DNA of 64,000 nucleotides from a virus. How positions within the stretch are numbered: the first letter of the stretch is position 1; every line of letters begins with the position of its first letter. The translations under genes and the position numbers were made by a program. Shown here in pieces: positions 22,401 through 59,517 of the stretch. The notes below the pieces were generated by a model. It was given only the letters and a program-made list of their open reading frames with translations. It was not told the origin of the DNA and made no database searches. The stretch lies in the IMG/VR virus record IMGVR_UViG_3300020411_000003; one strand, 5' to 3'.

Positions 22401-25400
22401 ATCAGCAGGTCTCTCATCCTTAATTCTTTCGAACCAAGAATCATTTGTCTTATCAATACCATCAGCATACTCTCTAAGTCTCTTGATGATTTGATCTGTG
22501 CTGTTGTCATTCTCAACCTGTAAGTACCACTTACCATATATTACTGGGCTAGTGTTAGGATTAACGAAGGTAGGATCAAAGCGCATAGGAGACTCACGCT
22601 TGTTCGCAAAGACGTTGAAGTCATAAATGCCTGGTTGATATGTAATTGGGTTAACACCCTGTTCTGCATCACTCTTAGTCTTGTGAATAGTAAAGACTTT
22701 CTCTGTCTGATACCTAGCATAGAAGAACTTGTTGTTTAACAGTCTTCCATTAACATCTGCGACAGTAGTGTCACTAGCATATGCTGCACCAACTAAAGGT
22801 AGAGAACCACCTTCTCTCTTTCTAAAGAATACAGTGTGTCCTGTAATATTAGAGAATGGAACATCAAAGATGTGTGGAACATCTGTACGGATGTTAGTAT
22901 TACTTACACCATCAAGTACACAAGCATATTGATGTAGATCATAGTTATCATCCAATGTGAATTGATAAAGATCAATCTCTACATCTGGATGGATATCTTC
23001 TACTTCAGCAGAATGTAAGTAGATACCAGCAGCAGCATTTTCTTTGCTGCTTGCAAGCATGATCTTAGTTTGATCAGTACCATTAAATGTAGCAGAAATA
23101 CCATAGTTCTCAGGCTTGGTAGTTCTTGCAGGAGCAATTACATAATACTCTTGGTTAGTATTAAATCCATTAGGAAGTCTTACGAAACGCTTATCAACTT
23201 CAACATATGACTGTGTAACTGTATCATATCTTGGACGTGGAACCAATCTAACTGGTGTACCTGTCTCAAGATCATGTGGGTTAGCAACATTACCTTGTCC
23301 TAATGTCCAGACTGTTGCTCTAGATGAGAGTGCAGTAGACAACTGTGAAGGTTCACTACGTGGTACAGTTCCTAAACCAGTTTGAATAACTGTGCTAATA
23401 TTAGAGAAGTACTGACGTATAGCATTTGCTTGGTCAACACACTGAGGATATGTTGTATTCTGTGTGATAGTATCATCAACTGTTCTAGTAAGAGTTGTGT
23501 ATACACCATCAATGAATTCGAAGTACAAGTAAGAGTTAGTACTTGTAGCGTTAGCATTGATAGAAGGACCAAACTCTAGACCAAGAGGAACAGGGTTTCT
23601 CTCTACAGTATCAAGATAAGAAGCAGAGTTAATAGTTCCAGTGATTATCTGGAAGAGAGTTGTGATTGTAGATGCAACCTGTTGACAAGCACCATTAGAA
23701 ATAGTTCTTGGTACACCATCAAGACTTGTTGGTGTTTCAACTGTGTCAATAACAATCTTGAATAGTGAGTTAAGTGTTGATCTTACATCTTCACAAGATC
23801 CAACAGAAGGAGTTCTTGTAACACCACCAACTACTATTTTTTCTGCTGCACTGACGAAGGTATGAACTGACGTATCAGATGATACACCAACATTAACCGT
23901 GATTGAGGTAGCAGTAGTGCCAGTAATGGTAGGATCATTTAAAGAAGCGGGGTCTGTTGAACGTGGATATGTATGGTTAGTAGCATTATTATCTCTAGCA
24001 CATGTAAATGTGAGAGAATTATCAGGAATATAAACACTGGTTCCAGCACTGTAACTATGAGCACCGATCTCAAGTGTTAAAGCACCAGTAGCAGGATCAT
24101 AAGATGATGTAGATACTGTATGCTTCTTACCAGATAATGTACTAGGATCTGCAATAGCATCAGTTACAATCTTAGCAAGAGTACCAACAGCAGATCTCAT
24201 GTCCTCACAAGGACCATTAGAATCTGTACGTGTTACACCTTGAAGTGATGCAGGACTCTGGATTGTACCTGTTAAGATAGAAACCAAAGTATCAATAGCA
24301 CTGAGTACAACGTTGCAGTCTCCGTTACTTACACCATCAGTGATGGTAGTATCTTTAACCTGAGCTAATGATGTGTGACCACCAACAGTAACATCTACGT
24401 TAGTAGCAATCTCTTTGATGATGTCACGTACTGCATTGAATGCAAAGATAGTTTCATTCTCAGATCCTGAAGCATGAGCACCAGCAACATAAAGGTTAGC
24501 AGCATCCCATACTCTATGGTTACCACCATAACCTGTGTTATGTGCAACAACCTTAACTACATCCTTAAGATCATCTAAGCAATCAGTAGAACTATAACCA
24601 GACTGCCATGTGTAAGAAGGATACTGAGCGATCATTCTACCCAATGCAATCTCTGCTGCAAACTCAACGTTAGCTAAGATTAGATCTTTAGCATCAGCAT
24701 GTCTGTTGCTTACATGAGCAGCTACGTTAGCAGTTATAGAAGTGTCCCTAACTTGAGTACGACCATGAGAACCAAGTGTTACAATGTTCTCATTCCTAGC
24801 GATTTGAATCATCAAATCACGTGCATGATTAAGTGCATCAATAGTTTGTTGCTCTTCACCAGCAACCTCTTGAACCATACCCTGAACATAGAGATCAGTC
24901 ATCTCCCAAACTCTATCGTTACCACCGTATGCTAGGTTGTATGAGACTTCTTCAACAAAGTCTACGATATCGTCTTTACAATCTTGTGGGTTACCTGTTG
25001 GAGGAACAAAACCAGGATAGTTAACCAACATCCTCTCATATGCCTCATCCGCAATGAGTAGTTTGTTAGCAACAACTAGGTTACGTGCATCACCAAATCT
25101 ATCTGTTGGGGGATCAGGTTCGTTGTAAGTAATACTCTTATCGAATACCTGAGATAAACCATGATGTCCAGTAACAAGGATCTTCTGGTTTCTAAGTGCT
25201 TGAGCAGCCATCTCACGTGCTTGCTCAAATACATAATTGGTTTCTTCTTCCTCACCAGCAACATGAGCACCAGTCTTGTATGAGTATGCAGCATCCCATG
25301 TCTTATCATTACCACCATAGGCAATGTTATCAGCAACTGCTTCAAGTAGATCAACAACATCATCAATACAATCTTGATTATGATACTGTTGGTTACCAGC

Positions 25401-28400
25401 AACTGTGAATACTTTATGAATGGAATTAGTTACTGCACTAACAAACTTATGGAAGTATGCACCACCAGTTTGAACAGCACCAGCAGATGCAGTAGTGAAC
25501 AGATGTGGATACTGATCAGCAAGAGCAGCAGCACCAACATTAACTGTGAATGTTCCTGACTCTCTTTCAATATTATTAGCAACTGCTCTTACAAATGTAT
25601 GGTTAGCAGTAGGATAATGCTTGATAGAATTAGCAACAGCACTTACAAATGTGTGAGGTGACTGTGGTTCAAAATGTACAGCATTAGTAGTTGAACTTAC
25701 AAATGTATGAGTGTATCTCTGGTTGTAGATAACAGCATTAGTATTTGCAGATACAAATGTATGATCATATTGATCAGCAGTAGCAGCAAAGTTAACATTA
25801 ACTGTAATAGTTGTAGCAGTAGCGTCCTTAATTTCTAGATCGCTATTGTATGCTGGATCTGTAACTCTAGGATATGTGTGGTTAGTAGCATTGTTGTCCT
25901 TAGTACATGTAAATGTCAAGGAATCAGTTGCTAGTCTAATCTTCTCACCGTTCTGTAGATCATGTACACCGATATCAAGAACAAGATCACCATTAGATGC
26001 ATTGTAAGAAGCAGAAGTAGGTGTATAGTTAGTTAAAGGAGATGCACCAATGTTAACTGTAATAGTTCCATTCTGTCTCTTGATGCCATTAGCAACAGCA
26101 GATACAAATGTATGATTAGTAGTATCACTAGAGATACCTACGTTAACATCGAATGCATTTGTTGTTACGTTCTGGATCTTCAACCAACGTCCACTTGGGT
26201 AGTCAAATCCTGCACGGGGATAATTTTTGGAACTTACGTTACCATCAAGGTCACATGTCATGACAAGTGAACCATCAACTATCTGGATATAATCTCCATG
26301 AGAGAATCCATGATTATTAACAGTCAATGAAAGAACACCTGTCTCTGGAATATATGATGCACCAGCAGCACTGTGGAGTGTAGCACCTACCTCATTAATA
26401 GTGATAGATTTCTCACCTGCATATGGATCAATTCCTGGACGTGGGTAACTATGGTTAGAAGTATTGTTGTCCTTAGAACATGTAAAGGTTAATGAATTAT
26501 CTTTAAGGATAATGTTTGCACCTTCACGAAGACCATGCTGACCAATAGTAAGAATCATGTCACCAGTGGTTGAGTTATAATCAGCAGCACTTGGAGTCCA
26601 TGTCTGGTTATCTCCAGCTCCACCAACATTAACTGTAATAGTGTTAGAAGTTCTTCCAACAATATTCAATGATCTTGAAGAAGCCCAGTCACTACCAGTC
26701 TGACGTGTAATTGCATCAGCAACACCACTCACAAATGTATGTACATCTGTGTTAGTAGAAGGTAGACCAGCAAGACACTGGAATTCAAATGTAGTTGCAC
26801 TTACGTTAGAAACTTTAATCCACTGACCACTTACAGGATCACTAGGACGTGGGTATGATTTCTCAGCAATAGAACCAGTAGCACCGTTGAATCCACAACT
26901 GAATGTTAATGCACCATCGGCAATCTTAACAAAGTCACCATCTAATAATCCATGCTCAGTTGTAGTTGTAATAGAAACAATACCTGTTGTAGGATTATAT
27001 GTTGTACCAGTTGTAGCAGTAAGAGATTTAGATGCTGGACGTGGATATACTTTATTGGATTGTTCACCATCCATCTGACACTTGAATGTCAGTGAGTTGT
27101 CATCGATAGTAATACCATCACCAACAGCGAGAGAGTGAGAACCAATTGTTAAAGTAAGATCTCCACTAGCAGGGTCATAGTTTGCACCTGTTGGTGTGAA
27201 CTTATTCTCTGTAATATCAGCAACAACAGCACCGTAGTCAGCAGATATAAATGTGTGAGTATAGTTACCACCACTTGTTACAGAATCAGCAAGACCAGAA
27301 ACAAATAGATGTTGTGTAGTGTCAGAAGACTTACCAACATCAAGTGTAATTGAATCAGCAGTAACAGCAGTAACATTTACAGGAGAATCATATGACTTAT
27401 CTCTCTTCTGAGTAACCGCACCAGCAACAGCAGATACAAATGTATGTGCAGTGGTGTTAGTAGATGGAGCAAAGTCTAATACTTGAATATCAAATGTGTC
27501 TATGGTTACAGCAAGAACCTTAACCCACTTGTTACTGATAGGATCAGTAGCACGAGGATATGTGTGGTTAGTACCATCGTTATCTTGAGCACATGTAAAG
27601 GTTAGAGAATTATCTGCTACCTTAACCCAATCTCCTTGCTTGATACCATGACCACTATTGGTTAATGTAAGAACACCTGTTGAAGGATCATAACTTGCAT
27701 CAGATATATTATGTGAATCAATAGTTGATCTTGGATATGCATGATTGGTAGCATTATTATCCTGAGCACATGTGAATGTGACAGCACCATCAGCAAGTTT
27801 AACAGAATCACCAACACTAATATTATGATTACCAATAATTAATGTCATCAAACCAGTTACGGGATCGAATGATGCACCCGTTGGAGTATGAGTAACTAGA
27901 GGTGATGCACCAACATTAATAACAATTTCATCACCAGAAACTGAATTTACTATTGTAGGTGTATTGTAGATAGGATCAGTTTGTCTAGGATATGACTTAA
28001 TCTCTGAAGTATCACCCATTGTGCAACGGAACTTCAATGAGTCCTGTGCTATAGTAATATTCTTACCAATAGGAATATTATGGTTAGGGATTGTTAGGAT
28101 TAAGTTACCACTTGCAGGTTGATAATCTACACCAGTTGGTGTGTAAGATTGAGAAGCACCTGCCTGACCAACATTAACCTTGAATGAATCTGAGGTTGAA
28201 CCATAAATTGATAACCACTTACCATTGCTAGGATCCTTAAGTCTTGGATAAGCATGCTCAGTAGCATTATTATCCATGTCACATGTAAATGTGAGAGATC
28301 CATCAGCAATCTTAATTCTGTCACCATCAGTGAATCCATGACCAGCAACTACCAGTGTTAATTCACCTGTTGCAGGATCATAAGAAGCATTAGTTGAACT

Positions 28401-31400
28401 ATGATAGGTAGAACCAACATCCTTAACAACTAGAGAACTAGTACCAGCAGGATCAGTAGGTCTAGGATATGCATGTTCTGTTGCATTGTTATCCTTATTA
28501 CAGGTAAACTTAATAGAATTACCAATAATCTTAACGTCTTGACCTGGCTCTAAATTATGCTGACCAACTGTTAATGTAAGATCACCAGTTGAAGGATTAT
28601 ATGCTGCATCACTTACATCAAGATTACCTTGAGATGTCTTACCAATATTAACAGTAATTTGATTAGTAGATGCTGCTAAGACTGGTAGATCCTCTTGGTA
28701 TGCAGGGTCACTGATACGTGGATATGCATGAGAACTACCATGATTATCCATATCACAGGTAAATGTCAAAGCACCATAATCAATTCTTATACGATCATTA
28801 GCTTTCTTGATACCATTAGGATTAGCATCAATGAATGAATGAGTGTAGTTACCGCCAGTTGTAATTGCATTAGGTATAGCACTGACGAATGTATGTGCAG
28901 TTGTATTAGATGATGTACCAACATCTAAGGTTACTGTGTCATTGTATCTTGTTAATCCATTGGCAACAGCACCAACAAATGTATGTGCATAGTTACCACC
29001 AGAAATTAGAGCACCACTTGTAGCAGATACAAATGTGTGTAGATAATTACCACCAGTCTTAACAGCACCTGCATCAGCAGACTTGAATGTGTGGACGTAT
29101 CCACCACCAGACTTAACAGCACCTGCTAGTGCAGATACGAAAGTATGTACATCTGTAGTCTTGCTTGAAGGTCCAACATTAATTGTGATAGTGTCAGCAG
29201 TAACACCAGTGATTTCTATTGCTTGATCATATGATCTGTCAACCTTAGAAGTAATACCGTTGGTGCTACCAGTTACGAACAAGTGAGCAGTGGTATTAGT
29301 AGAAGGAATAACATCCAATACTTGTACTTCAAATGTAGTTGAAGTTACATTAGAAACCTTCAACCACTTACTACTTACTGGATCAGTTACACGAGGATAT
29401 GTGTGCTGAGTAGCATTATTATCCTCCATACATGTGAAGGTAAATGCACCAGTAGCAAACTGAACATAGTCACCGTTCTTGATGTTATGAGCAGCAGTTG
29501 TTACACTTAATATACCTGTAGCTGGATCATATGTTGTACCAGCAGCAGCTGTATGTGTTTCAGTAGCAGATCTAGGATAAGACTTAGCACTTTGACTACC
29601 AACAGAGAATCCAACGAATACTGTCATTGTTGTACCAGTGACAGAATCTAGACCCAATGTTTCATTACGGAATGGGTCAGTAGCACGTGGATATGTGTGT
29701 TGTGTAGCATTATTGTCAGCATCACAAGTGAATGTCAATGCATCCTGTGCAAATGTAATTGTACTATTTGCTTTCTTAAGACCACTAGCAGTAGCTGATA
29801 CAAATGTGTGTGCATAGTTTCCACCAGATGTAACACAATTAGCGGTTGCAGAAACAAATGTATGTGCTGTAGTATTAGTAGATGGGATTGTACTCAATAC
29901 CTGAACACTAATTGTTGTAGCAGTTACATCTGTAATAGCAAATGCTTTATCAGAGAATGGATCAGTTGCACGTGGATATGTATGAGTTGTTGCGTGATTA
30001 TCTTCAGCACAAGTGAATGTTAGAGAGTTATCAGCAATCTTAACAGCAGTACCAACAGTCAGACTATGAGCACCAATGGTAAGTTCCATTATACCAGTGG
30101 TAGGATCATAATTTGCACCTGTAGGTGTATGCTGTATTAATGGAGATGAACCAACATCAACTGAGAATGAATCTTGAGTTACATTAGAAATTTGTAACCA
30201 CTTACCGAATGTAGGATCAGATCTGCGTGGGTATGTCTTAGTAGAAACATTACCGTCCATAGCACAGTTAAGTGATATAGAACCTTCAGCAAATTTAACT
30301 CTATCACCATTACTAAATCCATGATTAGCAATAGTAACAACCATAGCACCAGTTGCAGCATTATATGTTGCGTCTGTTACTGTATGTGTAGAAGCAGCAT
30401 TTAAAGAGTGTGCTCCAACTTCAAGAACCAATTCACCTGTTATAGGATCGTAAGTTGTTCCAGAAGCTGCTGTCCAATTATTGCCACCACCATCGGTGAT
30501 ACCATTATTAGCACCAGTGATAAAGGTGTGTGGAACATTACCATATGTACAACTGAATGTTACACCACCATCAGCAATCTTGATTGACTCACCAACAGTT
30601 AGACTGTGGTTTCCAATCTTCAATGTCATCTCACCTGTTGCAGGGTCGTATGAACCATCATCAACATTGTGACTTACTATTGGAGATTGACCAACATCAA
30701 TAGTAATAGTTGTAGCTGTTACTGCTGTAATCTCAATAGAAGTATCATGTACAGGATCAGTTGAACGAGGATAAGACTTGACACTATAGTTTCCATCCAT
30801 CTCACAAGTAAACTTGAGAGCATCATCATCGATCTTGATACTTGTGCCAGCAGTTAAACTGTGACTACCTATAGTTAATTCCATCAATCCTGTGTTAGGA
30901 TCATAGGTAGCATTAGTTGGTGTAAATTCTACAATAGGAGACTTACCAACATTAACTGTAATATCACCACCTCTCTTAGAGATAGCGTGACTAGTTGCTC
31001 TCTTAAATGTATGAGCAGACTGTGGTAAATTCTTAATTGAATTTGTTAATGCAGATACGAATGTATGTGCTGACTGAGGCTTATATTCAACAGCATCGGT
31101 AAGAGCAGATACAAATGTGTGAGCATATCTGTTAGCAGGATCAGCATCAAAACCAACATTAATTGTTAATGTTCCGTCTTGCTTTAAGATACCGTTAGCA
31201 GAAGCAGAAACAAATGTGTGTACTGAGTTATCAGTAGAAGAACCAACATTAATTGTAAATGTATCAGTGGTTGCTGATAGAATAGGAACCCATCTGTTGC
31301 TTAGTGAATCAAAGTTAGTACGTGGATATGTTTTCTGACTTACATTACCATCAAGATCACATGTCAATGTAATAGAGTTATCTGCTACCTGAATGTAATC

Positions 31401-34400
31401 TCCTGGTGAGAATCCATGACTAGCAACAGTAACAACCATAGCACCAGTTGAAGGTGTGTAGTCAACATTAGTTGCTGTATGTTGTGTAGAACCAACTGCT
31501 GTAACAGCGATTGACTTACCAGCAAAAGGATCAGTACCAGGACGAGGATATGAATGCTGAGTAGCACCACCATCCTTATCACAAGTAAATGCTAATGAGT
31601 TATCTTTTAATACAATGTCAGTACCAACACGTAATCCATGTTGACCAACAGTAAGAACCATGTCACCATTGTTCTCATTATATGTTGCACCAGTAGGAGT
31701 TAGGAACTTATTAGAACCAGCAGCACCTACATTAAGTGTAAACTTACCTGTATCAATTGCTGTAATTGGAAGAGATCTTCCAGAAGCTTTATCTAAGTTT
31801 GCACGTGGATATGACTGAGCAACTTGGTTGCCATCCATTGTACATGTAAATGATAGAGCACCGTCATCCATGACGATTCCATCACCAACAGATAAATTAT
31901 GAGGACCAACAGTAAGTTCTAAGTCACCTGTTGCAGGATCATAAGAAGCATTAGTTGGAGTAAATTCTACGTTAGAACCAGCATCTGCAATCTGAACTTT
32001 GAATGTATTTTGTGCTACATCATAAACAGGTAACCAATCACCAGAATAAGGATCAGTTGCACGTGGATACTTATGCTCGGAAGCATTGTTATCCATACCA
32101 CATGTGAATGTCAAAGATTCCTTAGCAATCTTAATAAGTTCACCATTTGCTATTCCATGATTAGGAACAGTAAATTCAAGTACACCTGTAGATGGATTAT
32201 AGTTAGCGTTAGAGATATCAAAGTCACCACCAACACCAATAACTTCTAGTCCAGTATTATATGCAGGATCAGTTACACGAGGATAAGTATGGTTAGAACT
32301 ATTTCCATCCATACCACATGTAAATGTTAATGCATCAGTAGCAAATCTGATATTCTCACCAACATCAATGTCATGATTTCCATCAACACTAACTGTTAAC
32401 TGACCACTTGCAGGATCATAGTTAGCATTAGTAATATCATATGTTACTGCACCAGTAGTTCCAACATGTGCTTCAAAAGTATTATTGGTTGTGTTTGTAA
32501 TAGTAACCCACTTACCACTGATAGGATCACTCTTACGTGGATATGAATGCTCAGTAGCATTAGCATCCATTGCACAAGTAAAGATTAGAGAATCATCATC
32601 AAGTCTAATCTTATCTCCATCAGAGAATCCATGATTAGCAAGAGTAAATTCTATTGTACCTTTGTCAGGATTATATCCAGCACCAGTAACTGTATGCTTA
32701 GAACCATCTGCTACAATCTTAACAGAACTTTGATATGCTGGATCAGTAGAACGAGGATATACATGCTGTGTAGCATGATTATCTTGAGCACATGTAAATG
32801 TAAATGCAGAGTCTTCAACTCTTACATTCTGACCTTCACTTAACTGATGGTTTGGAATAGTTACAGTCAACAAACCAGTAGCAGGAGCAAATGAAGCAGC
32901 AGTTACATCATGTCCAACTAATAAAGACTTACCTACATCAACACTGAATGTATTTGTATCTGCCTCAACAACCTCAATCCACTTATCACTAATAGGATCT
33001 GTAGAACGTGGGTATGTATGAACAGAAGCATTTCCATCCATTGAACATGTCAATGTTAATGAATCATCTTCAATCTTAATCTTACTACCAGCAGCTAAAC
33101 CATGAGCATTAGATGTAATAGTTAACCAACCAGTTTCAGGATTATAAGTTGCATCTGAAGCAGTGATTGAAGTAGGACCAATTAGACCATGACTAGCAAT
33201 GTCAAGAGTCAAATCACCTGTTGCTGGATCATACTCAGCATCAGATGGTGTATACTCAGCAGTAGAAGAACGAATCAACATTCTCTCTACAGATTCAGCA
33301 GCAATCAGTTGCTTGTTAGCAAGAATCAAATTACGTGCATCACCATTTCTGTCATTAACCACTTCAGGTGGTTCATAAGTGACAGTATTATCATATGTTT
33401 GAGTTAGACCATGACTACCAAACACAAATGCTTGCTCGTTACGCATGATCTGGATAGACATATCCCTTGCATATTCAATAGCACGGATAGTCTCATTTTT
33501 CTTCTGTGAAATATACTGAACTGCACCACTATCATAGTGATAAGCAGCATCCCATACTTCATCGTTACCACCATAAGCAGTGTTCTCAGCAATTGCTTCA
33601 ACGATGTCAACTAAGTCATCTCTACAATCCTGTGGACCATATCCTTGAGGTGAAGTGTAGGATGGATAATCCAACACCATTCTGTCAAATGCTTCAGCAG
33701 CAATGAATAATTTGTTTGAAAGTAATAGGTTTCTAGCATCACCATTACGATCAGAGATTACCTTCTTCGTAGAGAAAGTTGCTTTTTGTCCAAGTTCGAT
33801 CTCTGTTGATGAGACAACTCTCTTAACGTATGTGTTATCTGGAATAACAGGAGATGCAGGACGTGTAGCACCAGTATTAAGTTTATTATCTGTAAACTCA
33901 CTAGGATCATAGTCAGCAACTGTCATACCCTGTACAACACCACTGGTATCACCAATATCAACAATGGCAGATCCACCAGTAGTTTCTACACCAGTACGTA
34001 AGTATGAGAAATTACGTATAGATGCAATAGCAAGATCTCTAGCGTAGTCGTAACCCTCTAGAGTTTCAGTAAGTTCTGATGTAATATATGATAAGTTATT
34101 ACCAACATAATATGATTCAGCAGCCTGAATAGTATTAATGTTACCACCAAGTCTTAAATCTTGAATAGTAGCATCAAGTAGATATCCAATGTCACGACGA
34201 CACTTAACAATATCAATACCTTCTCTGTCTAAGAGGTATGGATACTTATTAGTAATGAATCCGTATGCCTCGTAAGCAATAAATTCTTTATTTGCTTCGA
34301 TAAGGTCAGCAGCATCAAGATCCTTATTATTAATTGTAATTCCAGTAGGATTAAGAATACTTGCAGTTGCATTGAATTTCTTAAATCCATTAGGAGATAA

Positions 34401-36260
34401 GGTTGCACTGAAAATATTGCTACTTCCAGCAGTTCTAGGAATTAATTTTACATATAACTTTTCATCTGACCTAGCACCTATACGGAATCCATCAATAGAT
34501 GCAGCGAGACGTGTCTCAGGATTATATCCTTCATCGTCTCCAAGATAGATCTTAGTCTGGTCTGATGCAGTGTTAAGATTTTTGGTAGCTGGAATATCAA
34601 TAGTATAATAAGCATTCTTCTTGATATTTCCAGTAGTTGTATCCACCACTTTAGGTGGAACAATGTCAGTAATATATCCACCCTTATCCTGTGCAAAGGC
34701 ATATCCTTTATGACCGATAGCATGTAAGGATGTATTACCAAAGTTGGAGTTAGAGTTGGTGATACTCATATCACCACCACTTTCCATTAAGAAGTGATCA
34801 GCGAAACCAACAGCGAAGATACTAACACACTGAATGAATGCGTCTTCAGATGCACGAACGTGGAAGTTTCTCCAGTCATCCTTCCAGAATGCATCACCCT
34901 TAGTATGATAAGGTACTGTTGCAAATGCGTCTGTTAGAGATGCTTGGTTAAATGTGTTTGTAAACTCATCATATCTGATGAATGCTCTATCGTCTTTCTG
35001 TAGAGATACACCAGTGTACTGAGCGATAACCATTGATTTGAAACCAGTGGCTTTCAAACCATTTGCCCAGATACCACAAATACCCCATGTAGATCTGATG
35101 GAGCAGTTGAATACGTATGGAGATGCAGATTCAACAGAGTCAACTTCTGCTTTAACAACTGCGTTTGAATCTAAACCATTTGCAGCAGTATATGTTGTGC
35201 CACTTATTAAAGATGTACTAGTTCCAAGAGCAGCAACAGTTCCTGGTATATTATAGGAGAACTTACGTTGATCAACTAAATCAATCTCAGAGATTGTGAA
35301 TACACCATCAAGTTGTTCATCTAGACCATTGTTTTCAATAGCAACGAACTGGTTCTTGAAGTAACCATGATTAACTTTAGATGTTACTTCAACATTAATT
35401 GTTCCTGCTGGTGCAGAATCTGTAAGTTTAATACTCTCAATAGAACGAATATCTGAGAGAGGTCCAACAATTCTAGTCTCTTGAATTCTATCACTGAATT
35501 CACCTGGATCATCAATTGTTGGTTGATATTGTGAAAATGCTTTAGCAACTTTCTGATAATACAGACCTAATTCTTCTTTGTCTGCATACTCAAAAACAGT
35601 CAGTTTATGGTGAGAGAAGTTTGGTACAGCTTTTGCAGTCCAATCACCATTTTGATAATAAACTTTACCAATTCCGTCAGAATTGTCAAACAATGGTGAC
35701 GCAGGTTCTAAATCACCATCTCTGATAGTGAACTGCCAGAAGTAACAACCACCAGTAACATTGAATATAGCAGAGCGAGCTTCTAAGCGATCAGCAGGAT
35801 CGGGAACAAACAGTGGATGAACTGATGTTCTACGTAGGTCATAACCAATAATAGAAGAACCACGAGGGATAATAGCACCACCCTCAGTGTTGTTAAATTT
35901 GTAGAGACAGTTGTTAGGATCACCAATATCTAAGTTAGAATTGTCAACCCATTCGTTGAGTGCTTGATCAAATTGGAACGGATCGATTCCATCAGCAGTA
36001 GCAAGACCAGGTCTGTTATCAACGTAATGCTTACCTGGCATCACCATGACAGTAAACTGGTCAAACCTATCGTTATCAGGACCTGGTTGGTAAGAGAATC
36101 GTGAAATCTCTAAAAATGCCCTCTGAATAGATTTAAACGGTCTAATAGGGGAGTTACCTCTATTATTAATCTCATCCGTTGCGTTAAAATCGTCAGGAGA
36201 AACATACAAATACTTACCAGTTTTAGAACTAATAAGATTGTCAAGTCTTGTCAAAGCCAT
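16428..36260 (-). CDS. giant virion structural protein (6610 aa), probable long fibre/adhesin
   Basis: Uninterrupted ORF; cyanophage-type N-terminus LYVSPDDFNATD...GNSPIRPFKSIQRA; late promoter upstream; lies in the fibre module. Confidence 0.9.
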   Translation of the reverse strand: MALTRLDNLISSKTGKYLYVSPDDFNATDEINNRGNSPIRPFKSIQRAFLEISRFSYQPGPDNDRFDQFTVMVMPGKHYVDNRPGLATADGIDPFQFDQALNEWVDNSNLDIGDPNNCLYKFNNTEGGAIIPRGSSIIGYDLRRTSVHPLFVPDPADRLEARSAIFNVTGGCYFWQFTIRDGDLEPASPLFDNSDGIGKVYYQNGDWTAKAVPNFSHHKLTVFEYADKEELGLYYQKVAKAFSQYQPTIDDPGEFSDRIQETRIVGPLSDIRSIESIKLTDSAPAGTINVEVTSKVNHGYFKNQFVAIENNGLDEQLDGVFTISEIDLVDQRKFSYNIPGTVAALGTSTSLISGTTYTAANGLDSNAVVKAEVDSVESASPYVFNCSIRSTWGICGIWANGLKATGFKSMVIAQYTGVSLQKDDRAFIRYDEFTNTFNQASLTDAFATVPYHTKGDAFWKDDWRNFHVRASEDAFIQCVSIFAVGFADHFLMESGGDMSITNSNSNFGNTSLHAIGHKGYAFAQDKGGYITDIVPPKVVDTTTGNIKKNAYYTIDIPATKNLNTASDQTKIYLGDDEGYNPETRLAASIDGFRIGARSDEKLYVKLIPRTAGSSNIFSATLSPNGFKKFNATASILNPTGITINNKDLDAADLIEANKEFIAYEAYGFITNKYPYLLDREGIDIVKCRRDIGYLLDATIQDLRLGGNINTIQAAESYYVGNNLSYITSELTETLEGYDYARDLAIASIRNFSYLRTGVETTGGSAIVDIGDTSGVVQGMTVADYDPSEFTDNKLNTGATRPASPVIPDNTYVKRVVSSTEIELGQKATFSTKKVISDRNGDARNLLLSNKLFIAAEAFDRMVLDYPSYTSPQGYGPQDCRDDLVDIVEAIAENTAYGGNDEVWDAAYHYDSGAVQYISQKKNETIRAIEYARDMSIQIMRNEQAFVFGSHGLTQTYDNTVTYEPPEVVNDRNGDARNLILANKQLIAAESVERMLIRSSTAEYTPSDAEYDPATGDLTLDIASHGLIGPTSITASDATYNPETGWLTITSNAHGLAAGSKIKIEDDSLTLTCSMDGNASVHTYPRSTDPISDKWIEVVEADTNTFSVDVGKSLLVGHDVTAASFAPATGLLTVTIPNHQLSEGQNVRVEDSAFTFTCAQDNHATQHVYPRSTDPAYQSSVKIVADGSKHTVTGAGYNPDKGTIEFTLANHGFSDGDKIRLDDDSLIFTCAMDANATEHSYPRKSDPISGKWVTITNTTNNTFEAHVGTTGAVTYDITNANYDPASGQLTVSVDGNHDIDVGENIRFATDALTFTCGMDGNSSNHTYPRVTDPAYNTGLEVIGVGGDFDISNANYNPSTGVLEFTVPNHGIANGELIKIAKESLTFTCGMDNNASEHKYPRATDPYSGDWLPVYDVAQNTFKVQIADAGSNVEFTPTNASYDPATGDLELTVGPHNLSVGDGIVMDDGALSFTCTMDGNQVAQSYPRANLDKASGRSLPITAIDTGKFTLNVGAAGSNKFLTPTGATYNENNGDMVLTVGQHGLRVGTDIVLKDNSLAFTCDKDGGATQHSYPRPGTDPFAGKSIAVTAVGSTQHTATNVDYTPSTGAMVVTVASHGFSPGDYIQVADNSITLTCDLDGNVSQKTYPRTNFDSLSNRWVPILSATTDTFTINVGSSTDNSVHTFVSASANGILKQDGTLTINVGFDADPANRYAHTFVSALTDAVEYKPQSAHTFVSALTNSIKNLPQSAHTFKRATSHAISKRGGDITVNVGKSPIVEFTPTNATYDPNTGLMELTIGSHSLTAGTSIKIDDDALKFTCEMDGNYSVKSYPRSTDPVHDTSIEITAVTATTITIDVGQSPIVSHNVDDGSYDPATGEMTLKIGNHSLTVGESIKIADGGVTFSCTYGNVPHTFITGANNGITDGGGNNWTAASGTTYDPITGELVLEVGAHSLNAASTHTVTDATYNAATGAMVVTIANHGFSNGDRVKFAEGSISLNCAMDGNVSTKTYPRRSDPTFGKWLQISNVTQDSFSVDVGSSPLIQHTPTGANYDPTTGIMELTIGAHSLTVGTAVKIADNSLTFTCAEDNHATTHTYPRATDPFSDKAFAITDVTATTISVQVLSTIPSTNTTAHTFVSATANCVTSGGNYAHTFVSATASGLKKANSTITFAQDALTFTCDADNNATQHTYPRATDPFRNETLGLDSVTGTTMTVFVGFSVGSQSAKSYPRSATETHTAAAGTTYDPATGILSVTTAAHNIKNGDYVQFATGAFTFTCMEDNNATQHTYPRVTDPVSSKWLKVSNVTSTTFEVQVLDVIPSTNTTAHLFVTGSTNGITSKVDRSYDQAIEITGVTADTITINVGPSSKTTDVHTFVSALAGAVKSGGGYVHTFKSADAGAVKTGGNYLHTFVSATSGALISGGNYAHTFVGAVANGLTRYNDTVTLDVGTSSNTTAHTFVSAIPNAITTGGNYTHSFIDANPNGIKKANDRIRIDYGALTFTCDMDNHGSSHAYPRISDPAYQEDLPVLAASTNQITVNIGKTSQGNLDVSDAAYNPSTGDLTLTVGQHNLEPGQDVKIIGNSIKFTCNKDNNATEHAYPRPTDPAGTSSLVVKDVGSTYHSSTNASYDPATGELTLVVAGHGFTDGDRIKIADGSLTFTCDMDNNATEHAYPRLKDPSNGKWLSIYGSTSDSFKVNVGQAGASQSYTPTGVDYQPASGNLILTIPNHNIPIGKNITIAQDSLKFRCTMGDTSEIKSYPRQTDPIYNTPTIVNSVSGDEIVINVGASPLVTHTPTGASFDPVTGLMTLIIGNHNISVGDSVKLADGAVTFTCAQDNNATNHAYPRSTIDSHNISDASYDPSTGVLTLTNSGHGIKQGDWVKVADNSLTFTCAQDNDGTNHTYPRATDPISNKWVKVLAVTIDTFDIQVLDFAPSTNTTAHTFVSAVAGAVTQKRDKSYDSPVNVTAVTADSITLDVGKSSDTTQHLFVSGLADSVTSGGNYTHTFISADYGAVVADITENKFTPTGANYDPASGDLTLTIGSHSLAVGDGITIDDNSLTFKCQMDGEQSNKVYPRPASKSLTATTGTTYNPTTGIVSITTTTEHGLLDGDFVKIADGALTFSCGFNGATGSIAEKSYPRPSDPVSGQWIKVSNVSATTFEFQCLAGLPSTNTDVHTFVSGVADAITRQTGSDWASSRSLNIVGRTSNTITVNVGGAGDNQTWTPSAADYNSTTGDMILTIGQHGLREGANIILKDNSLTFTCSKDNNTSNHSYPRPGIDPYAGEKSITINEVGATLHSAAGASYIPETGVLSLTVNNHGFSHGDYIQIVDGSLVMTCDLDGNVSSKNYPRAGFDYPSGRWLKIQNVTTNAFDVNVGISSDTTNHTFVSAVANGIKRQNGTITVNIGASPLTNYTPTSASYNASNGDLVLDIGVHDLQNGEKIRLATDSLTFTCTKDNNATNHTYPRVTDPAYNSDLEIKDATATTITVNVNFAATADQYDHTFVSANTNAVIYNQRYTHTFVSSTTNAVHFEPQSPHTFVSAVANSIKHYPTANHTFVRAVANNIERESGTFTVNVGAAALADQYPHLFTTASAGAVQTGGAYFHKFVSAVTNSIHKVFTVAGNQQYHNQDCIDDVVDLLEAVADNIAYGGNDKTWDAAYSYKTGAHVAGEEEETNYVFEQAREMAAQALRNQKILVTGHHGLSQVFDKSITYNEPDPPTDRFGDARNLVVANKLLIADEAYERMLVNYPGFVPPTGNPQDCKDDIVDFVEEVSYNLAYGGNDRVWEMTDLYVQGMVQEVAGEEQQTIDALNHARDLMIQIARNENIVTLGSHGRTQVRDTSITANVAAHVSNRHADAKDLILANVEFAAEIALGRMIAQYPSYTWQSGYSSTDCLDDLKDVVKVVAHNTGYGGNHRVWDAANLYVAGAHASGSENETIFAFNAVRDIIKEIATNVDVTVGGHTSLAQVKDTTITDGVSNGDCNVVLSAIDTLVSILTGTIQSPASLQGVTRTDSNGPCEDMRSAVGTLAKIVTDAIADPSTLSGKKHTVSTSSYDPATGALTLEIGAHSYSAGTSVYIPDNSLTFTCARDNNATNHTYPRSTDPASLNDPTITGTTATSITVNVGVSSDTSVHTFVSAAEKIVVGGVTRTPSVGSCEDVRSTLNSLFKIVIDTVETPTSLDGVPRTISNGACQQVASTITTLFQIITGTINSASYLDTVERNPVPLGLEFGPSINANATSTNSYLYFEFIDGVYTTLTRTVDDTITQNTTYPQCVDQANAIRQYFSNISTVIQTGLGTVPRSEPSQLSTALSSRATVWTLGQGNVANPHDLETGTPVRLVPRPRYDTVTQSYVEVDKRFVRLPNGFNTNQEYYVIAPARTTKPENYGISATFNGTDQTKIMLASSKENAAAGIYLHSAEVEDIHPDVEIDLYQFTLDDNYDLHQYACVLDGVSNTNIRTDVPHIFDVPFSNITGHTVFFRKREGGSLPLVGAAYASDTTVADVNGRLLNNKFFYARYQTEKVFTIHKTKSDAEQGVNPITYQPGIYDFNVFANKRESPMRFDPTFVNPNTSPVIYGKWYLQVENDNSTDQIIKRLREYADGIDKTNDSWFERIKDERPADDRLYRLRYVIPQYLQSVRDPLNGFTIKTRTDETRRLVPQKLLLKPVSGNVTKARFSNPVQSNEYIGYTKEDFINFSLNEEVAYDPYKKDLVGNTQFAKTITTQNYISMTIQSGRYVTQGADDYLELTVFEQGVTNTALANTKFTTVKITAPQGGAFVANKTQSVAGNRIEWAGNSSGYGYLHAIMQVPGTTTWHMILKDTVGKIDYDSIDNIRFSQGTAFADLLADADMGKSLVLKDLIKKGYPEYYYRQNGAAVYTITPGDIIEDDASIQYYVESVEDVGQIDDTFYIFNTQEIQKRIYGQQDGIYYLTAVRGNISPMPQGAGNLGNFKNFKFSQPISKLYPLNYKNDPLWYQQLDATLVDPPQTYSAADNYVHGLVRVNDFKGSLTQESVIDLVKNNAFGTNTYTQVSASVDNRIRAQKGNAASGSEDRLIPIAGDSTVQTDQRYYVELRRPSIARAGNHTFEYLGFGPGNYSTGLPQRQEVVLTEIQDFYAQSKKQDGGLVFYTGLNSNGDLYIGNRKIDAITGEEVFLESATLQDSADDDETLGNLVTTFDTPVTFNEYITVNGGEAQDKRSTFNSPVLINVLGTVRNNPALVVSSFVDPAIDDGSLDRSAFVRNVETGGDIVIARNKISAAIFQFNSRRDGQAYKIQTHVVGAVPSNITPDQTGAFGASQIVQYGNAGAPTSGDFLLKGESIGKTGSLGWIYSNYYTLIGNAVPESFAFNNTNVITIKWVSLTNTQLGITSSSEIKITGFSDSDFNGTWQVISNGFNPASDTLQIAIGATKNSVNNQNPRMWSDEVVNNPNIRLEYSNSNWKEWGVIGAEALRTESDTIGDYKLGVNTVGRSDKASFEKNFVDAKTTPRANLDVVGTAFISGKKITDYASHATDATRTYQDRTDAFMVGGDSATPENESTFRVSTANGGRVGINVTNTELDRALVVDGESRFTGDAKFEEDIEINGGGGTNTAQVRTTITTGTIEFFPSLFEGTLDFAPLATTVHVANDSTADQFIRVGNASLHSNIWIGATPDTSTNISKIEIGGAYNNNESLSFTLIGTKSFKTKGDFQLGTDRGLLDTVKLTSTAGTVEFFSGNSATSKLDFATNAAEITIAGKGGTTTIRNNLVVDSSARFNSDITLCGGFASYSFTAYRAQIGSTAFSHASGDLGNNVFNSNVDLIDVLRVASTSDVYNAVDTAGTGDWGGTIFQNEITQISGTVEPLTLPALTGEQYYLPLKNRPFDNNGDQYISEQDILLIDTDDSGNRHPEFVKVISLPRINVAPYWIVVERLPFGTYTAKRSDHPDTTAIYKCVVQYNATWTTTTIDATGAEENVYLAQFGGSIELGDYVIIDREDTTNNGIFDQGEMFKVKVLLSQVAKKLSIKNGCDTANEVTVFEVDSTTGNTQLGTGGTTVINGQLSLNGTCASPYTNDPTNKKLTITNGSEITTFEVDTCTGDTTIGNHHGTVFMLAEQYGTAPAAYTKGVDEVHVYRHNPMSVISGGPATTTADNVVTATSNIEIQGNLTSFTKGDLVAIYTTDAIEIIQITDDPYTGGGGELLLPTSSNAQYTNGGRGMEGTSARAFSIGANVVKLDKYDRTTTLLHDVPALQADRATELKARTPNQSDIRLEISLKDADLIAPKLDYVTLVRIGSEFFLPDSVDGTLDAFYAIKMPKQIREPNVVGTTPVQLFGGGSTTINQDLEIMSGVLRMYGSDGKTLVMSIANDDGHSGDGSLEDPKTETAGLTLKGAAAFYGDLKIYYDNCQMHGVCSTETSFRVTNREGNILMGETFYQKGKVLSVESAIDPIFHIDNLGAAGTGGTEGPKDFKIYQNNAIDSFGIEKYWTAGGGRRHTYVAFDPTTGLGQQIDNPLQVNQNYLVNASSGSNMVVYLPDNAQTGDMIRFVELSGNLTYNTSLIIRAKKINNIATNIQGDGSGSRIAAGAGQTLNTAWDSGELIIQTRNASFGLVYAGTVDVEGSASAQTIPPGLRGWWLIEL
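25400..33260 (-). repeat. about 25 imperfect beta-rich protein repeats (YDPxTG...FTCxxDNNxxxHxYPRxxDP...HTFVSA), nested
   Basis: Counted about 26 YPR motifs in the translation, one of them an isolated unit at about 23870-24120. Confidence 0.85.
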
Positions 36261-36303: not shown

Positions 36304-36375
36304 CAAGAAAATCCTTGATTTCGCTTAGGTTCTAGAGAAATTACATCGATGTGATTTTAACCCAGTTCGAAAAAG

Positions 36376-36449
36376 TAGGAGTGGTGGGATTCGAACCCAC
36401 ACTGGAAAGATTTTAAGTCTTCTATCTCTGCCGATTGGATTACACTCCC
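36376..36449 (-). tRNA. trnL: tRNA-Leu(TAA)
   Basis: Cloverleaf: anticodon arm GAAGA-CTTAAAA-TCTTT, T-loop TTCGAAT. Confidence 0.9.
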
Positions 36450-36452
36450 AAA

Positions 36453-36526
36453 CGACTCAGGTAGGATTCGAACCTACGACCGACTGCTTAGAAGGCAGTT
36501 GCTCTTGTCCACTGAGCTACTGAGTC
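36453..36526 (-). tRNA. trnR: tRNA-Arg(TCT)
   Basis: Acceptor GACTCAG/CTGAGTC; anticodon arm ACTGC-CTTCTAA-GCAGT. Confidence 0.92.
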
Positions 36527-36528
36527 AA

Positions 36529-36601
36529 TAGGGGTTACGGGGATCGAACCCGTCTCCTATCAATTATGAGTTGATTGCATTCACCAGATTGCTAAACCCC
36601 T
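36529..36601 (-). tRNA. trnI: tRNA with CAT anticodon, probably Ile2 (lysidine) rather than Met
   Basis: Anticodon arm ATCAA-CTCATAA-TTGAT; paired first base pair, so not an initiator. Confidence 0.8.
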
Positions 36602-36948
36602 GGTATTAAAACTAAATCTGGTAATTCCCTTAAACCTGCATGAACTAATCTATGACAATTAGCACATAATGGAACACACTTGTCAACCTCCTCTTTCAGT
36701 GATGCGTACGGACCTGTTCTGACTAAACCTGTTATACTTACTGTTTTTTCTGAATTGTCTGCATGATGGAGATCCATCACACATACAGGGTATTGTATAT
36801 TGCAGATGACACAAGGATTTGACTTGGCATCATCTACCAATTTCTGCCTATTTTTCGGACCTCTTTGATTTGCTCGTTTGGTTTTACCATTTTTACGAGC
36901 CCATTCTCTTTGGTACTCTCTATTCTTCTGTTTGTCCTTTATTGGCAT
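36592..36948 (-). CDS. HNH endonuclease inside the tRNA cluster
   Basis: CVIC...MDLHH...EEVDKCVPLCANCHRLVH. Confidence 0.8.
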   Translation of the reverse strand: MPIKDKQKNREYQREWARKNGKTKRANQRGPKNRQKLVDDAKSNPCVICNIQYPVCVMDLHHADNSEKTVSITGLVRTGPYASLKEEVDKCVPLCANCHRLVHAGLRELPDLVLIPGV

Positions 36949-37063: not shown

Positions 37064-37608
37064 TGTTTCTCGAAGAAGTTAAAGTTTACCACACACTTGA
37101 ACCGATTGTCAAGTTGACTCACACCTCTATGTTTTAAATTTGCTGGAAATTTTACTAGACGATTAGCAACTGCTTCTGTTACTGTACCATCCTCAAACTC
37201 AGTAAATCCATCACATGTGTTAACATAATATATGGCGGTTGTCATTGTGTTGCTTGGAATTGGGTTTCCATTTTCCATTTCTGCCCAATCATAATGAAAA
37301 TCACTATAAAATCTCTTACTTTTTAGTGGTTCTAGATTTGCTTTAACTTTATGTAATGCAATAAAGTCTAGTCTATTCACTAAAGGTAATATAGATTGAA
37401 AATCTGGAGATATTTCATATCTAAAATTGCCACCGAATGCTTCTTGAAAATAAAATGGGTGAGTAAACTGATAATTGTCAATATCCTGTTCATTTGGACC
37501 ACATGTAACTTTATGTTGCTGATATGTCCATAAGAGAACTCCTCCCATGAAATATTGTTCAAGATGTACGAATTCTTCTTGTGGTAAAAAATTATCTAAT
37601 ATTTCCAT
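37060..37608 (-). CDS. 2OG-Fe(II) oxygenase; probable start MEILDNF
   Basis: FHYD motif, TAIYYVNTCDGFTEF, KHRG, KCVVNFNF; the track's GTG start lies inside the tmRNA 3' hairpin. Confidence 0.8.
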   Translation of the reverse strand: MEILDNFLPQEEFVHLEQYFMGGVLLWTYQQHKVTCGPNEQDIDNYQFTHPFYFQEAFGGNFRYEISPDFQSILPLVNRLDFIALHKVKANLEPLKSKRFYSDFHYDWAEMENGNPIPSNTMTTAIYYVNTCDGFTEFEDGTVTEAVANRLVKFPANLKHRGVSQLDNRFKCVVNFNFFEKQ

Positions 37609-37616
37609 TGTATGAA

Positions 37617-37917
37617 GGGGGTATTCCACCCCCGATAGGTTATTTGGGTTAGAAGGCTAACCTAACCCCCATCTCACCTTATGGTCTAAACAGCCACGAG
37701 GTCACGAGTTGCAACCTTGCTGAATGGACGTGAGAATGCTACGATGTTATTCGCAGCAGGTGTATCTGTTTTAGCAGATGTTGTTTGCTTATCCAAGCAG
37801 GTTTCAGTCCCGATCCTTATACCCTGTCGAAGCCATGGCATCCCCTCGAATGGAGATGACGGGAATCGAACCCGTGTCCAGAATGTAGGTGTCGTCACCT
37901 ATTCCCCAGAAGGGGAA
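37617..37917 (-). ncRNA. ssrA: circularly permuted (two-piece) tmRNA, cyanobacterial type
   Basis: T-arm ACGGG-TTCGATT-CCCGT plus CATCTCC-A precedes GGGGATG; acceptor stem with G3-U70; tag frame ANNIVAFSRPFSKVATRDLVAV* at 37754-37686. Confidence 0.9.
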
Positions 37918-37989
37918 AGCCAACAGTCGGATTTGAACCAACGACCTTCGCTTTACAAAAGCGTTGCTCTACCACTGAGCTATGCTGGC
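37918..37989 (-). tRNA. trnT: tRNA-Thr(TGT)
   Basis: Acceptor GCCAGCA/TGTTGGC; anticodon loop TT-TGT-AA; T-loop TTCAAAT. Confidence 0.9.
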
Positions 37990-38396
37990 AGTTTATCGAA
38001 TTTAAAGTGACCCCATTGAGAACCCCAAGTGTCACCTAAGTCTAGCACATGATAGATCTCATCGGTGAGGATTGCATCAATACTGTAATGTACGTTATCA
38101 TCTGATTTACCATGCCAATGATCGTCTTGCCACTCGAATATTGTATCACGTCCTTCCAGATATGTCCAACCTGAAGAGTCAAAATTTTGTACGAGAAATT
38201 TTTCCCCAATCGGGGTAACACGCATCCGAAATTCCCTGTATGGTTTAGGGTTGTGGTGGTATGCTTGAAACCCTTTGATCCAACCATCACCAACTTCCTC
38301 ATGACATATGAGGATCCTAGCAAACCTACTCGGATATTGCAAGGCTTGTTTATGATTGTCAAATTTTCCAATTAAACATTCACGAAAAGGTTTCAT
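37980..38396 (-). CDS. cpeT: CpeT/CpcT-like bilin lyase, copy 1
   Basis: GKFDNHKQALQYPSRFARI, PYR, WGSQWGHFKFDK. Confidence 0.65.
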   Translation of the reverse strand: MKPFRECLIGKFDNHKQALQYPSRFARILICHEEVGDGWIKGFQAYHHNPKPYREFRMRVTPIGEKFLVQNFDSSGWTYLEGRDTIFEWQDDHWHGKSDDNVHYSIDAILTDEIYHVLDLGDTWGSQWGHFKFDKLPA

Positions 38397-38691
38397 CAGG
38401 TAAACTTCCAACTAAAGGTACTTCAAATAGGAGAGGGTGCATCTCTTCCTCCATCAAATAACTAGAGACCTTTTCAACTTGTTCTAGTGTAAATTCTGGG
38501 TTGACTGCTGCTTCACCTCGAACCCATACATCTTCTAACTCTTCTTTATCCAAAGAGTCAAATGTAAAGGGCATTTTGTTGATAAACCACATTCTCACAA
38601 TGGATGAGTGGTTATCATCAAAGTAACAATACACGTATTTCGACGACAATTTGTATCCTTTGAACGCCATGATAAAACAATCTTCATACAA
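38380..38691 (-). CDS. conserved cyanophage hypothetical protein
   Basis: VRMWFINKMPFTFD...YLMEEEMHPLLF; ATAAATA upstream. Confidence 0.7.
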   Translation of the reverse strand: MYEDCFIMAFKGYKLSSKYVYCYFDDNHSSIVRMWFINKMPFTFDSLDKEELEDVWVRGEAAVNPEFTLEQVEKVSSYLMEEEMHPLLFEVPLVGSLPDETFS

Positions 38692-38695
38692 CTAT

Positions 38696-39148
38696 TTATC
38701 CAACTTTATCAAATTTGTAGACTACATCACTGCCCCAGACTACTTTGTCATCTTTCCATCCTTGATCTCTGCTCTTATAGTATACACCATTAAACTTGAC
38801 TAATGACACCACTTTACCACCGTTAACAATGCATTTATCTGTCTTAACCTGTCCAGAGTAGTAGTCCTCAATCTTATTGAATATCATATCACAACACTCG
38901 TTATGATCTGACCAATCAGGCAACCAGTTTTCAACTAGAATAGTACCTTCTTGCTGAAATACCTTATGCCACTTATGTCTGTATGCTTTCTCCTCACCGA
39001 GATATTCATACCACTGCTTAGATTCAAATTCATGATCACCGATACGTTCCCAACGCAATTTGACGTGAGACCACACAGCAGGATTTCTGCATGCCTGATT
39101 CCAGTTATCATAGAATCCTTCTAATTTATCGCAAAATTCTTCTAACAT
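38696..39148 (-). CDS. cpeT: CpeT/CpcT-like bilin lyase, copy 2; probable start MLEEF
   Basis: GFYDNWNQACRNPAVWSHV, SKQWY, AYR, SRDQG, VWGSDVVYKFDK. Confidence 0.75.
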   Translation of the reverse strand: MLEEFCDKLEGFYDNWNQACRNPAVWSHVKLRWERIGDHEFESKQWYEYLGEEKAYRHKWHKVFQQEGTILVENWLPDWSDHNECCDMIFNKIEDYYSGQVKTDKCIVNGGKVVSLVKFNGVYYKSRDQGWKDDKVVWGSDVVYKFDKVG

Positions 39149-39173
39149 AAAAAAAGGAGGGGTTTCCCCCTCC
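39148..39173 (-). terminator. intrinsic terminator GGAGGGG-GAAA-CCCCTCC-T7
   Basis: GC hairpin plus T tract after the beta-barrel gene; a TTGACT-16-TATAAT promoter lies immediately upstream. Confidence 0.8.
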
Positions 39174-39201
39174 ATTATAGCATATTCTATTGACTAGTCA
39201 A

Positions 39202-59491: not shown

Positions 59492-59517
59492 GTGTCAGGT
59501 AGCTAACCCGACATTTA

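Follow-up and report, generated by a model that had tools for sequence, protein, structure and literature searches.

The window, by which we mean the whole 64,000-nt stretch of viral DNA analysed here (IMG/VR record IMGVR_UViG_3300020411_000003), carries a full-length, circularly permuted two-piece tmRNA gene on its minus strand (37917..37617), located directly after a tRNA-Thr gene and recognized from the sequence, by ARAGORN and by Rfam. It is almost certainly a genuine tmRNA gene. Judged by its sequence, it belongs to a tmRNA lineage confined to phages, which includes S-SSM7, S-CAM1/3, Sf-FS3 and 111 IMG/VR contigs. The reading we favor, with moderate confidence, is that of a functional tmRNA of a T4-like marine cyanomyovirus that rescues ribosomes and resumes translation at position 37775.

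Architecture and identity of the permuted tmRNA

All elements listed in the initial annotation, which had been made from the sequence alone, are found on the minus strand (Table 1), and the ARAGORN and Rfam scans it had called for are both positive, far beyond chance. ARAGORN calls a permuted tmRNA at 37595-37940(-). The Rfam cyano_tmRNA model (RF01851; cut-off 70 bits) matches across model positions 1-288 of 288 with 134.8 bits and an E-value of 1.8e-36, and the tmRNA_permuted model (RF04321; cut-off 47 bits) matches with 76.1 bits. The permuted ARAGORN call and these two matches bear out the assignment to the cyanobacterial type of permuted tmRNA. The permuted order itself is confirmed by the sequence and by ARAGORN, with the T-arm and CATCTCC-A followed by TTCGA and then by GGGGATG.

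Table 1. Positions of the tRNA-Thr gene and of the elements of the tmRNA gene in the window
Feature	Position	Strand	Basis or detail
tRNA-Thr, anticodon TGT	37989..37918	minus	ARAGORN; directly upstream of tmRNA
Acceptor piece	37917..37851	minus	5' hairpin, then helix 2 3' strand, T-arm, acceptor 3' strand and discriminator
T-arm	37875..37859	minus	Sequence
Acceptor 3' strand CATCTCC	37858..37852	minus	Sequence
Discriminator A	37851	minus	Sequence
Intervening spacer TTCGA, 5 nt	37850..37846	minus	Sequence
Start of coding piece, acceptor 5' strand GGGGATG	37845..37839	minus	Sequence and acceptor pair counts
Hairpin GCTT-GGAT-AAGC at the pseudoknot-1 position	37798..37787	minus	Rfam alignment and fold
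Hairpin 1, ATCTG / CTAAAA / CAGAT, phage-specific	37779..37764	minus	Encloses the resume codon chosen by ARAGORN, GCT 37775..37773
Hairpin 2, 8 bp	37758..37737	minus	Encloses GCG 37754..37752; fold and pair counts
Tag frame per ARAGORN, 29 codons and TAG stop	37775..37686	minus	Coding part is 166-255 of the call
Shorter 22-codon frame of the initial annotation	GCG 37754 to TAG stop 37688..37686	minus	
Terminal hairpin	ends at 37617	minus	Sequence

The window tmRNA has a 7-bp acceptor stem that includes a G3-U70 alanine identity pair, alongside a discriminator A. The same pair and discriminator are present in 31 of 31 parsed phage copies and in 71 of 71 host tmRNAs, while CCA is absent from the gene in the window, in the parsed phage copies and in the host copies. 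Since they are common to all 71 hosts examined, the G3-U70 pair, the discriminator A and the missing CCA are not phage-specific. The spacer between the two pieces measures 4-9 nt in parsed phage copies and 5-39 nt in hosts. Acceptor pairs 5-68 and 6-67 alternate among standard pair types, and the T-stem exhibits compensatory changes among 81 phage copies. Pseudoknots and long-range pairing across the permutation kept RNAalifold, run on an 81-sequence MAFFT alignment, from producing a good global structure, and its local helices alone were used. A scan for promoters and terminators around the tmRNA gave results no better than those from shuffled sequences, and a predicted ‘terminator’ within the tRNA-Thr T-arm is an artefact.

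A phage-specific insert and the probable site where translation resumes

Phage copies of the gene contain 21 extra nucleotides ahead of the ANNIV core. In the window, this insert begins a 5-bp hairpin (hairpin 1, 37779..37764), and both the hairpin and the insert are missing from ~90 host tmRNAs. Alignments reveal the full signature of the phage lineage in the window, namely the insert with hairpin 1 upstream of an Ala-Ala-Asn-Asn-Ile-Val-Ala core, together with an extended hairpin 2. Among 50 distinct sequences, the stem of hairpin 1 occurs in compensated variants (AGATG/CATCT, ATCTG/CAGAT and GACG/CGTC), and two of its pairs have changes on both sides. Pairing is retained in 92.3% of cells, compared with 20-51% when the partners are slid, and the covariation score of 0.181, against 0.088 for shuffles, was reached by 0 of 500 shuffles; the compensated changes come from few clades and represent few events. 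Hairpin 1 is a real, covarying element, and its covariation and its absence from hosts confirm the extra ATCTG/CAGAT hairpin that the initial annotation had proposed. In some variants the insert reads GCT-AAT-AAC-ATC, and because these variants copy the resume motif, the 21-nt insert looks like a tandem duplication of the resume region.

Hairpin 2 comprises 8 bp in the window, with a folding energy of -11.1 kcal/mol and a fold z-score of -5.8. Across the phage alignment, 99.7% of its cells are paired, and a U-A/A-U swap divides 32/17 of 50 rows and 54/26 of 81. Host tmRNAs possess a shorter version of this hairpin.

Three codons are candidates for the point at which translation resumes: the GCU at 37775 selected by ARAGORN, the GCU at 37757, and the GCG at 37754 selected in the initial annotation. 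In E. coli, an A at position -4 of the resume codon is nearly universal and acts as the main determinant of frame, and the distance from pseudoknot 1 matters little (PMC2481249). Several features point to the upstream codon. Firstly, the GCU at 37775 has an A at -4 in 45 of 45 distinct phage variants, including nine in which a shifted stem leaves this A unpaired. By comparison, the GCW that precedes the GCG (37757) has it in only 15 of the 45, the window included, and the GCG at 37754 in none. Secondly, the codon at 37775 varies at its third base only, occurring as GCA, GCT or GCC. Thirdly, the upstream codon is the choice of ARAGORN in the window as well as in each of the five named phages. 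Finally, 37775 lies in a weak 5-bp stem, whereas 37754 is buried within the stable helix of hairpin 2. On these grounds, translation probably resumes at 37775 and not at 37754 or 37757.

The main alternative, which we regard as possible but clearly less probable, retains the same functional tmRNA and has translation resume further downstream, either at GCG 37754 (22-residue tag) or at the GCU before it (23 residues). Hairpin 1 would then be a structural insert that is not translated and that separates pseudoknot 1 from the resume codon. In hairpin 2, the GCG occupies the place homologous to that of the host resume codon, with which the Rfam model aligns it; the GCU at 37757, for its part, has the A at -4 in the window. 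In addition, hairpin 1 evolves as an RNA stem, while its peptide reading is not conserved and changes freely (KTDT, KTSD, NNID). Against this alternative stand the -4 base and the burial of the GCG described above, the choice made by ARAGORN, and a frame 0 that never contains a stop in the insert. The last point is tempered by the fact that the insert is stop-free in frame 0 and in frame +1 alike across the 45 variants. Indels do not settle the frame either, because the length of the insert never varies.

Resumption at 37775 modifies two elements of the initial annotation. Its 22-residue tag exists as a frame running from GCG 37754 to the TAG stop, but the ARAGORN call and the A at -4 indicate that the tag probably has 29 residues and starts seven codons upstream. 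Similarly, the hairpin that was placed before the resume codon is real, but it probably holds the resume codon inside it.

The tag and the phage-only lineage

Read from 37775, the tag is AKTDTPAANNIVAFSRPFSKVATRDLVAV, with 29 residues after the charged alanine and about twice the host length. For comparison, ~90 picocyanobacterial tmRNAs were collected from species-representative genomes, and these host copies are strikingly uniform: they encode a 16-residue tag with a Pro-Val-Ala-Ala end, place the resume codon, GCG, 12 nt beyond the pseudoknot-1 hairpin, and have U-A at -5 and -4. The window tag ends in Val-Ala-Val, in contrast to Val-Ala-Ala in the ~90 host copies, so that the earlier description of a tag longer than that of the host and ending in Ala-Val rather than Ala-Ala is upheld. 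The Ala-Ala end is a property of host tags and not a criterion of the RNA family (RF01851/RF04321).

The stop of the window tag lies 11 nt ahead of a conserved GAGATGGGGG motif. Among 59 unique frames, the frame-0 stop is located at most 12 nt upstream of the next conserved motif in almost every copy, with tags of 21 to 32 codons, and the other two frames often stop early, at codon 1 or 4. The last three residues are drawn only from A, V, T, L and P, most often as ATA (19 frames), VAA (17), VTA (9) or VAV (6), with a few others. The commonest five-residue ends start with Glu-Leu or Asp-Leu, and the tail usually offers an acidic residue, Leu and then three small residues. Named cyanophages have tags ending in ATA, VTA or VAA, whereas the window shares an Asp-Leu-Val-Ala-Val end with five IMG/VR relatives; an Ala-Val end characterizes this sub-lineage and not the window phage alone.

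The five copies closest to the window exhibit three synonymous differences versus one amino-acid change (Lys/Thr). For pairs chosen by flanking-RNA identity, pN/pS in the tail ranges from 0.06 to 0.88 and is 0.75 in the length class of the window. Peptide-level constraint on the variable tail is weak to moderate. Codon-position variability of the conserved core is biased by the search pattern and was left out of the evidence. The tag frame and its small, non-polar end are kept, and the tail is fast-evolving. Because the tail retains this small, non-polar character, degradation of tagged chains probably persists, although its rate or the preferred protease may differ from that of the host Ala-Ala tag; the weakened proteolysis raised in the initial annotation is hypothetical.

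A bolder proposal, which we consider rather improbable, is that the phage lineage rebuilt the messenger part of the tmRNA. Here, a hairpin-held, duplicated resume module would provide a new start or two alternative starts, and the tail would redirect nascent chains, mostly those of the host, to another protease or adaptor, or would slow their breakdown. If true, a virus would have redirected a tag that serves quality control in bacteria.

In a maximum-likelihood tree of 81 phage and 79 host sequences (339 columns), a single branch with SH-aLRT support of 100 divides phage from host; the rows were gathered by motif patterns and the sampling was not blind, but the split rests on the 339 columns and not on the motif alone. 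The window tmRNA groups with L187, its nearest relative at 95% identity, and with L194, L180 and L203. A search of 401 genomes of the host order found the phage-type motif in none, and no host-type copy was found in viral contigs. The phage tag was likewise not found in the ~90 host tmRNAs, so that the observation named in the initial annotation as refuting it, the same tag in host chromosomes, did not turn up. The sole exception is L261 (NYWG01000053.1), a 22-kb contig binned as a Verrucomicrobiales MAG, which carries a phage-type tmRNA with the tag tail TRELATA and is most likely a mis-binned cyanophage contig. The gene had also been described as host-derived. This holds for an old event but not for a recent one, given that all phage copies form one group apart from the hosts in the tree. 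Four viral copies (e.g., L126) have the phage hairpin and the Ala-Ala-Asn-Asn core combined with a host-like tail ending in Gln-Ala-Ala-Pro-Val-Ala-Ala, and could either preserve what the phage lineage originally looked like or have arisen by recombination with host genes.

Homologues identified by blastn occur in Sf-FS3, AG-345-P14, S-CAM1, S-CAM3 and S-SSM7/S-SSM6a. All of these named-phage copies pass the RF01851 cut-off, at 109-143 bits, and ARAGORN calls all of them permuted. They share with the window the same gene, lineage, architecture, hairpin 1, Ala-Ala-Asn-Asn-Ile-Val core and tRNA array, and Sf-FS3 resembles it further in having tRNA-Thr directly upstream of the tmRNA. The ATCTG/CAGAT stem variant is common to the window, AG-345-P14 and the IMG/VR relatives of the window. 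The window tmRNA nevertheless differs from those of the named cyanophages in sequence, being only 67-84% identical over aligned parts. Only ~15 public cyanophage records, a handful of named phages, match beyond the tRNA-Thr part in blastn, so the group as a whole can do without the tmRNA gene.

A pattern for the tRNA-like core alone proved too general, matching >114 viral contigs of all kinds, and IMG/VR was instead scanned with tag-core patterns, yielding 111 contigs with the same core. ARAGORN calls a tmRNA in 83 of 83 distinct IMG/VR contexts. A tRNA-Thr gene lies at most 30 nt upstream of the tmRNA in 40 of these contexts, and another tRNA abuts its 3' end in 27. A complete tRNA is nested within the tmRNA gene in 18 of the 83 (Tyr in 12, Asn in 6), presumably in the inter-piece spacer, which in the window is 5 nt long. 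A separate one-piece ‘tmRNA’ call by ARAGORN in Sf-FS3 (L001 2718-3135) is likely false, as it spans three real tRNA genes and lacks Rfam support.

Where the homologous loci are annotated in public records, they are given as hypothetical proteins or left blank, and a tmRNA is annotated in none. The hypothetical-protein frames overlapping the tmRNA are located at 1504-1722 in S-SSM7 (L004), 1459-1599 in S-CAM3 (L005) and 3336-3545 in Sf-FS3 (L001), and their counterpart in the window is a 70-codon GTG frame on the minus strand (37898..37686). The public annotation of this locus as a hypothetical protein should be corrected.

Proposed role in infection, related systems and the phage itself

Marine cyanomyoviruses break down host mRNA while relying on the ribosomes of their hosts, which are among the ocean’s most abundant phototrophs. 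In these organisms, rescue RNA supplied by the virus could have a real influence on infection yield, and we consider it quite likely that the phage tmRNA is active in ribosome rescue during infection. A family search detected no SmpB in four complete or near-complete genomes (S-SSM7, Sf-FS3, G001 and G002), while the same search found smpB in Synechococcus WH7803. A tblastn comparison of WH7803 SmpB with the window produced chance-level matches only (E 0.023, inside a giant ORF). With no SmpB gene in the phage and CCA unencoded, we infer that charging, CCA addition, end processing and delivery are carried out by host proteins.

In the proposed mechanism, the tmRNA would be co-transcribed with tRNA-Thr and excised by host tRNA-processing enzymes. 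The acceptor piece would gain its 5' end when the 3' end of tRNA-Thr is processed, and would be finished by 3' trimming and the CCA-adding enzyme. RNase P would cleave ahead of G1 of the coding piece, and the TTCGA spacer would be lost during this maturation. The two pieces would then pair via the acceptor stem and helix 2. Host AlaRS would charge the tmRNA through G3-U70, and host SmpB would deliver it to ribosomes stalled on broken host or phage mRNAs. Translation would resume at GCU 37775 inside the phage-specific hairpin, adding the alanine and a 29-residue tag that consists of seven hydrophilic residues, a host-like ANNIV..FSR core and a phage tail ending in Leu-Val-Ala-Val. In an infected cell, where host mRNA would be degraded and host transcription falling, the phage tmRNA supply could keep ribosomes recycling for phage protein synthesis, much as phage tRNA genes support translation.

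A role as a decoy RNA, which would tie up host SmpB or ribosomes and so block host trans-translation, appears very unlikely. The tmRNA of a phage without its own SmpB must compete for that of the host, and there is a precedent in mycobacteriophage DS6A, whose TLD-only tmRNA is reported to inhibit tmRNA (PMC4131195, PMC11915505). A decoy, however, needs no messenger part, and the mRNA-like domain, open tag frame, correctly placed stop and downstream helices are kept in >80 distinct copies. Slightly less probable again is a counter-defence spare, also suggested in the initial annotation, that would replace host tmRNA cut by a host nuclease, like the phage tRNAs proposed for cleaved host tRNAs. 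The gene does sit within a phage tRNA array, and its sequence differs from that of the host tmRNA, notably around the resume region; yet the tRNA-like core, which a nuclease would be likely to target, has changed the least, and the window holds no hint of a tmRNA-cleaving defence. We know of no such defence in cyanobacteria. Least credible is that the locus encodes a small protein, or that it is the decaying remnant of DNA captured from a host. The tmRNA is covered by the 70-codon GTG frame, and overlapping frames carry a hypothetical-protein label in the records of S-SSM7, S-CAM3 and Sf-FS3. However, its score against the RNA model, its compensated base changes and its persistence as a single phage lineage speak for a selected RNA gene.

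As a probable rescue RNA, the window tmRNA can be compared with several known systems. It resembles the picocyanobacterial tmRNA (Synechococcus, Prochlorococcus and Cyanobium; RF01851) in its permuted order, G3-U70 pair, discriminator A and unencoded CCA, as well as in helix 2, the pseudoknot-1 hairpin, the ANNIV.FSR tag core and the downstream helices. Unlike that tmRNA, it has the 21-nt insert, a longer hairpin 2 and a longer tail ending in Ala-Val. The OM43 phage Melnitz and the pelagimyophages are similar in being lytic marine myoviruses with a permuted tmRNA and no SmpB (PMC9004378), and the authors of the Melnitz study propose that the tmRNA maintains hijacked translation or tags host proteins (PMC9004378). 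Their tmRNAs, however, are of the alphaproteobacterial type and linked to a glutamine riboswitch (PMC9004378), whereas Rfam reports no riboswitch beside the window tmRNA. Mycobacteriophages of the Bxz1 group and DS6A also carry a phage-borne ssrA (PMC4131195), but their tmRNAs have the one-piece standard form and belong to another host phylum, and that of DS6A is without a tag frame (PMC4131195).

A 2014 survey of tmRNAs noted phage copies in mycobacteriophages and Bacillus phage G only (PMC4131195), and a 2025 update of the tmRNA database also processed viral genomes (PMC11915505). Buchholz et al. (2022) surveyed 18,146 phage genomes and found 53 two-piece tmRNAs, almost all of them marine or aquatic (PMC9004378). 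Table S1 of that study lists S-CAM1, S-CAM3, S-SSM7, S-SSM6a, S-CRM01 and AG-345-P14 as ‘Permuted’, with Sf-FS3 not among them (PMC9004378). The novelty implied by the initial annotation is reduced by this catalogue to a new lineage member with a long tag; the cyanophage permuted tmRNA was already known, and the shared tag design is a modest addition. A literature search, with most subscription journals outside it, retrieved no text on cyanophage tmRNA tags or on the resume-site insert, and no report of expression, processing, charging or tagging for any cyanophage tmRNA. The phage-only insert at the resume site, tags longer than that of the host and tag ends that are mostly not Ala-Ala invite experiments, and cultured phage-host pairs with the same gene are available (S-SSM7 on WH8109, S-CAM1 on WH7803 and Sf-FS3 on WH8102).

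The genes that adjoin the tmRNA are cyanophage structural and auxiliary genes, among them tail, baseplate and CpeT genes, in keeping with the original claim that it is phage-encoded. Neighboring frames match two CpeT-like families, a cyanophage outer-membrane-protein-like domain, gp5 hub, tail and short-tail-fibre families, and an HNH endonuclease. Megablast of the window finds only patchy matches of 77-82% to tail-fibre genes of Synechococcus phages, and the nearest relative is a complete, uncultured 202.5-kb IMG/VR genome (G001), which is syntenic in this region at 81% identity. Based on these gene families, the patchy matches and the synteny with G001, we identify the window as part of an uncultured T4-like cyanomyovirus without a close cultured relative.

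Several further features of the window deserve mention. A single open frame of 6610 codons (16428-36260, minus) adjoins the tail-fibre genes, and its 5' end (~34650-36240) shares 77-82% identity with Synechococcus phage genes for short tail fibres or tail-fibre-like products. Pfam has no match in its first 5000 residues; the frame probably encodes a giant fibre protein or a structural protein of the virion. A second tRNA block (Met-CAT, Arg-TCT and Leu-TAA) lies ~1 kb downstream of the tmRNA, at 36375-36601 (-) and 36592-36948 (-), and is abutted by the HNH endonuclease frame. Two frames give partial CpeT/CpcT matches, to the N-terminal part at 37980-38411 (-) and to the C-terminal part at 38696-39175 (-), an order that is wrong for a simple split gene. 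The former overlaps tRNA-Thr by 10 nt, so the true end or start may differ. Farther away, at 59311-59513 (-), the window contains a manA RNA motif (Rfam RF01745) that matches the full model with 163.1 bits.
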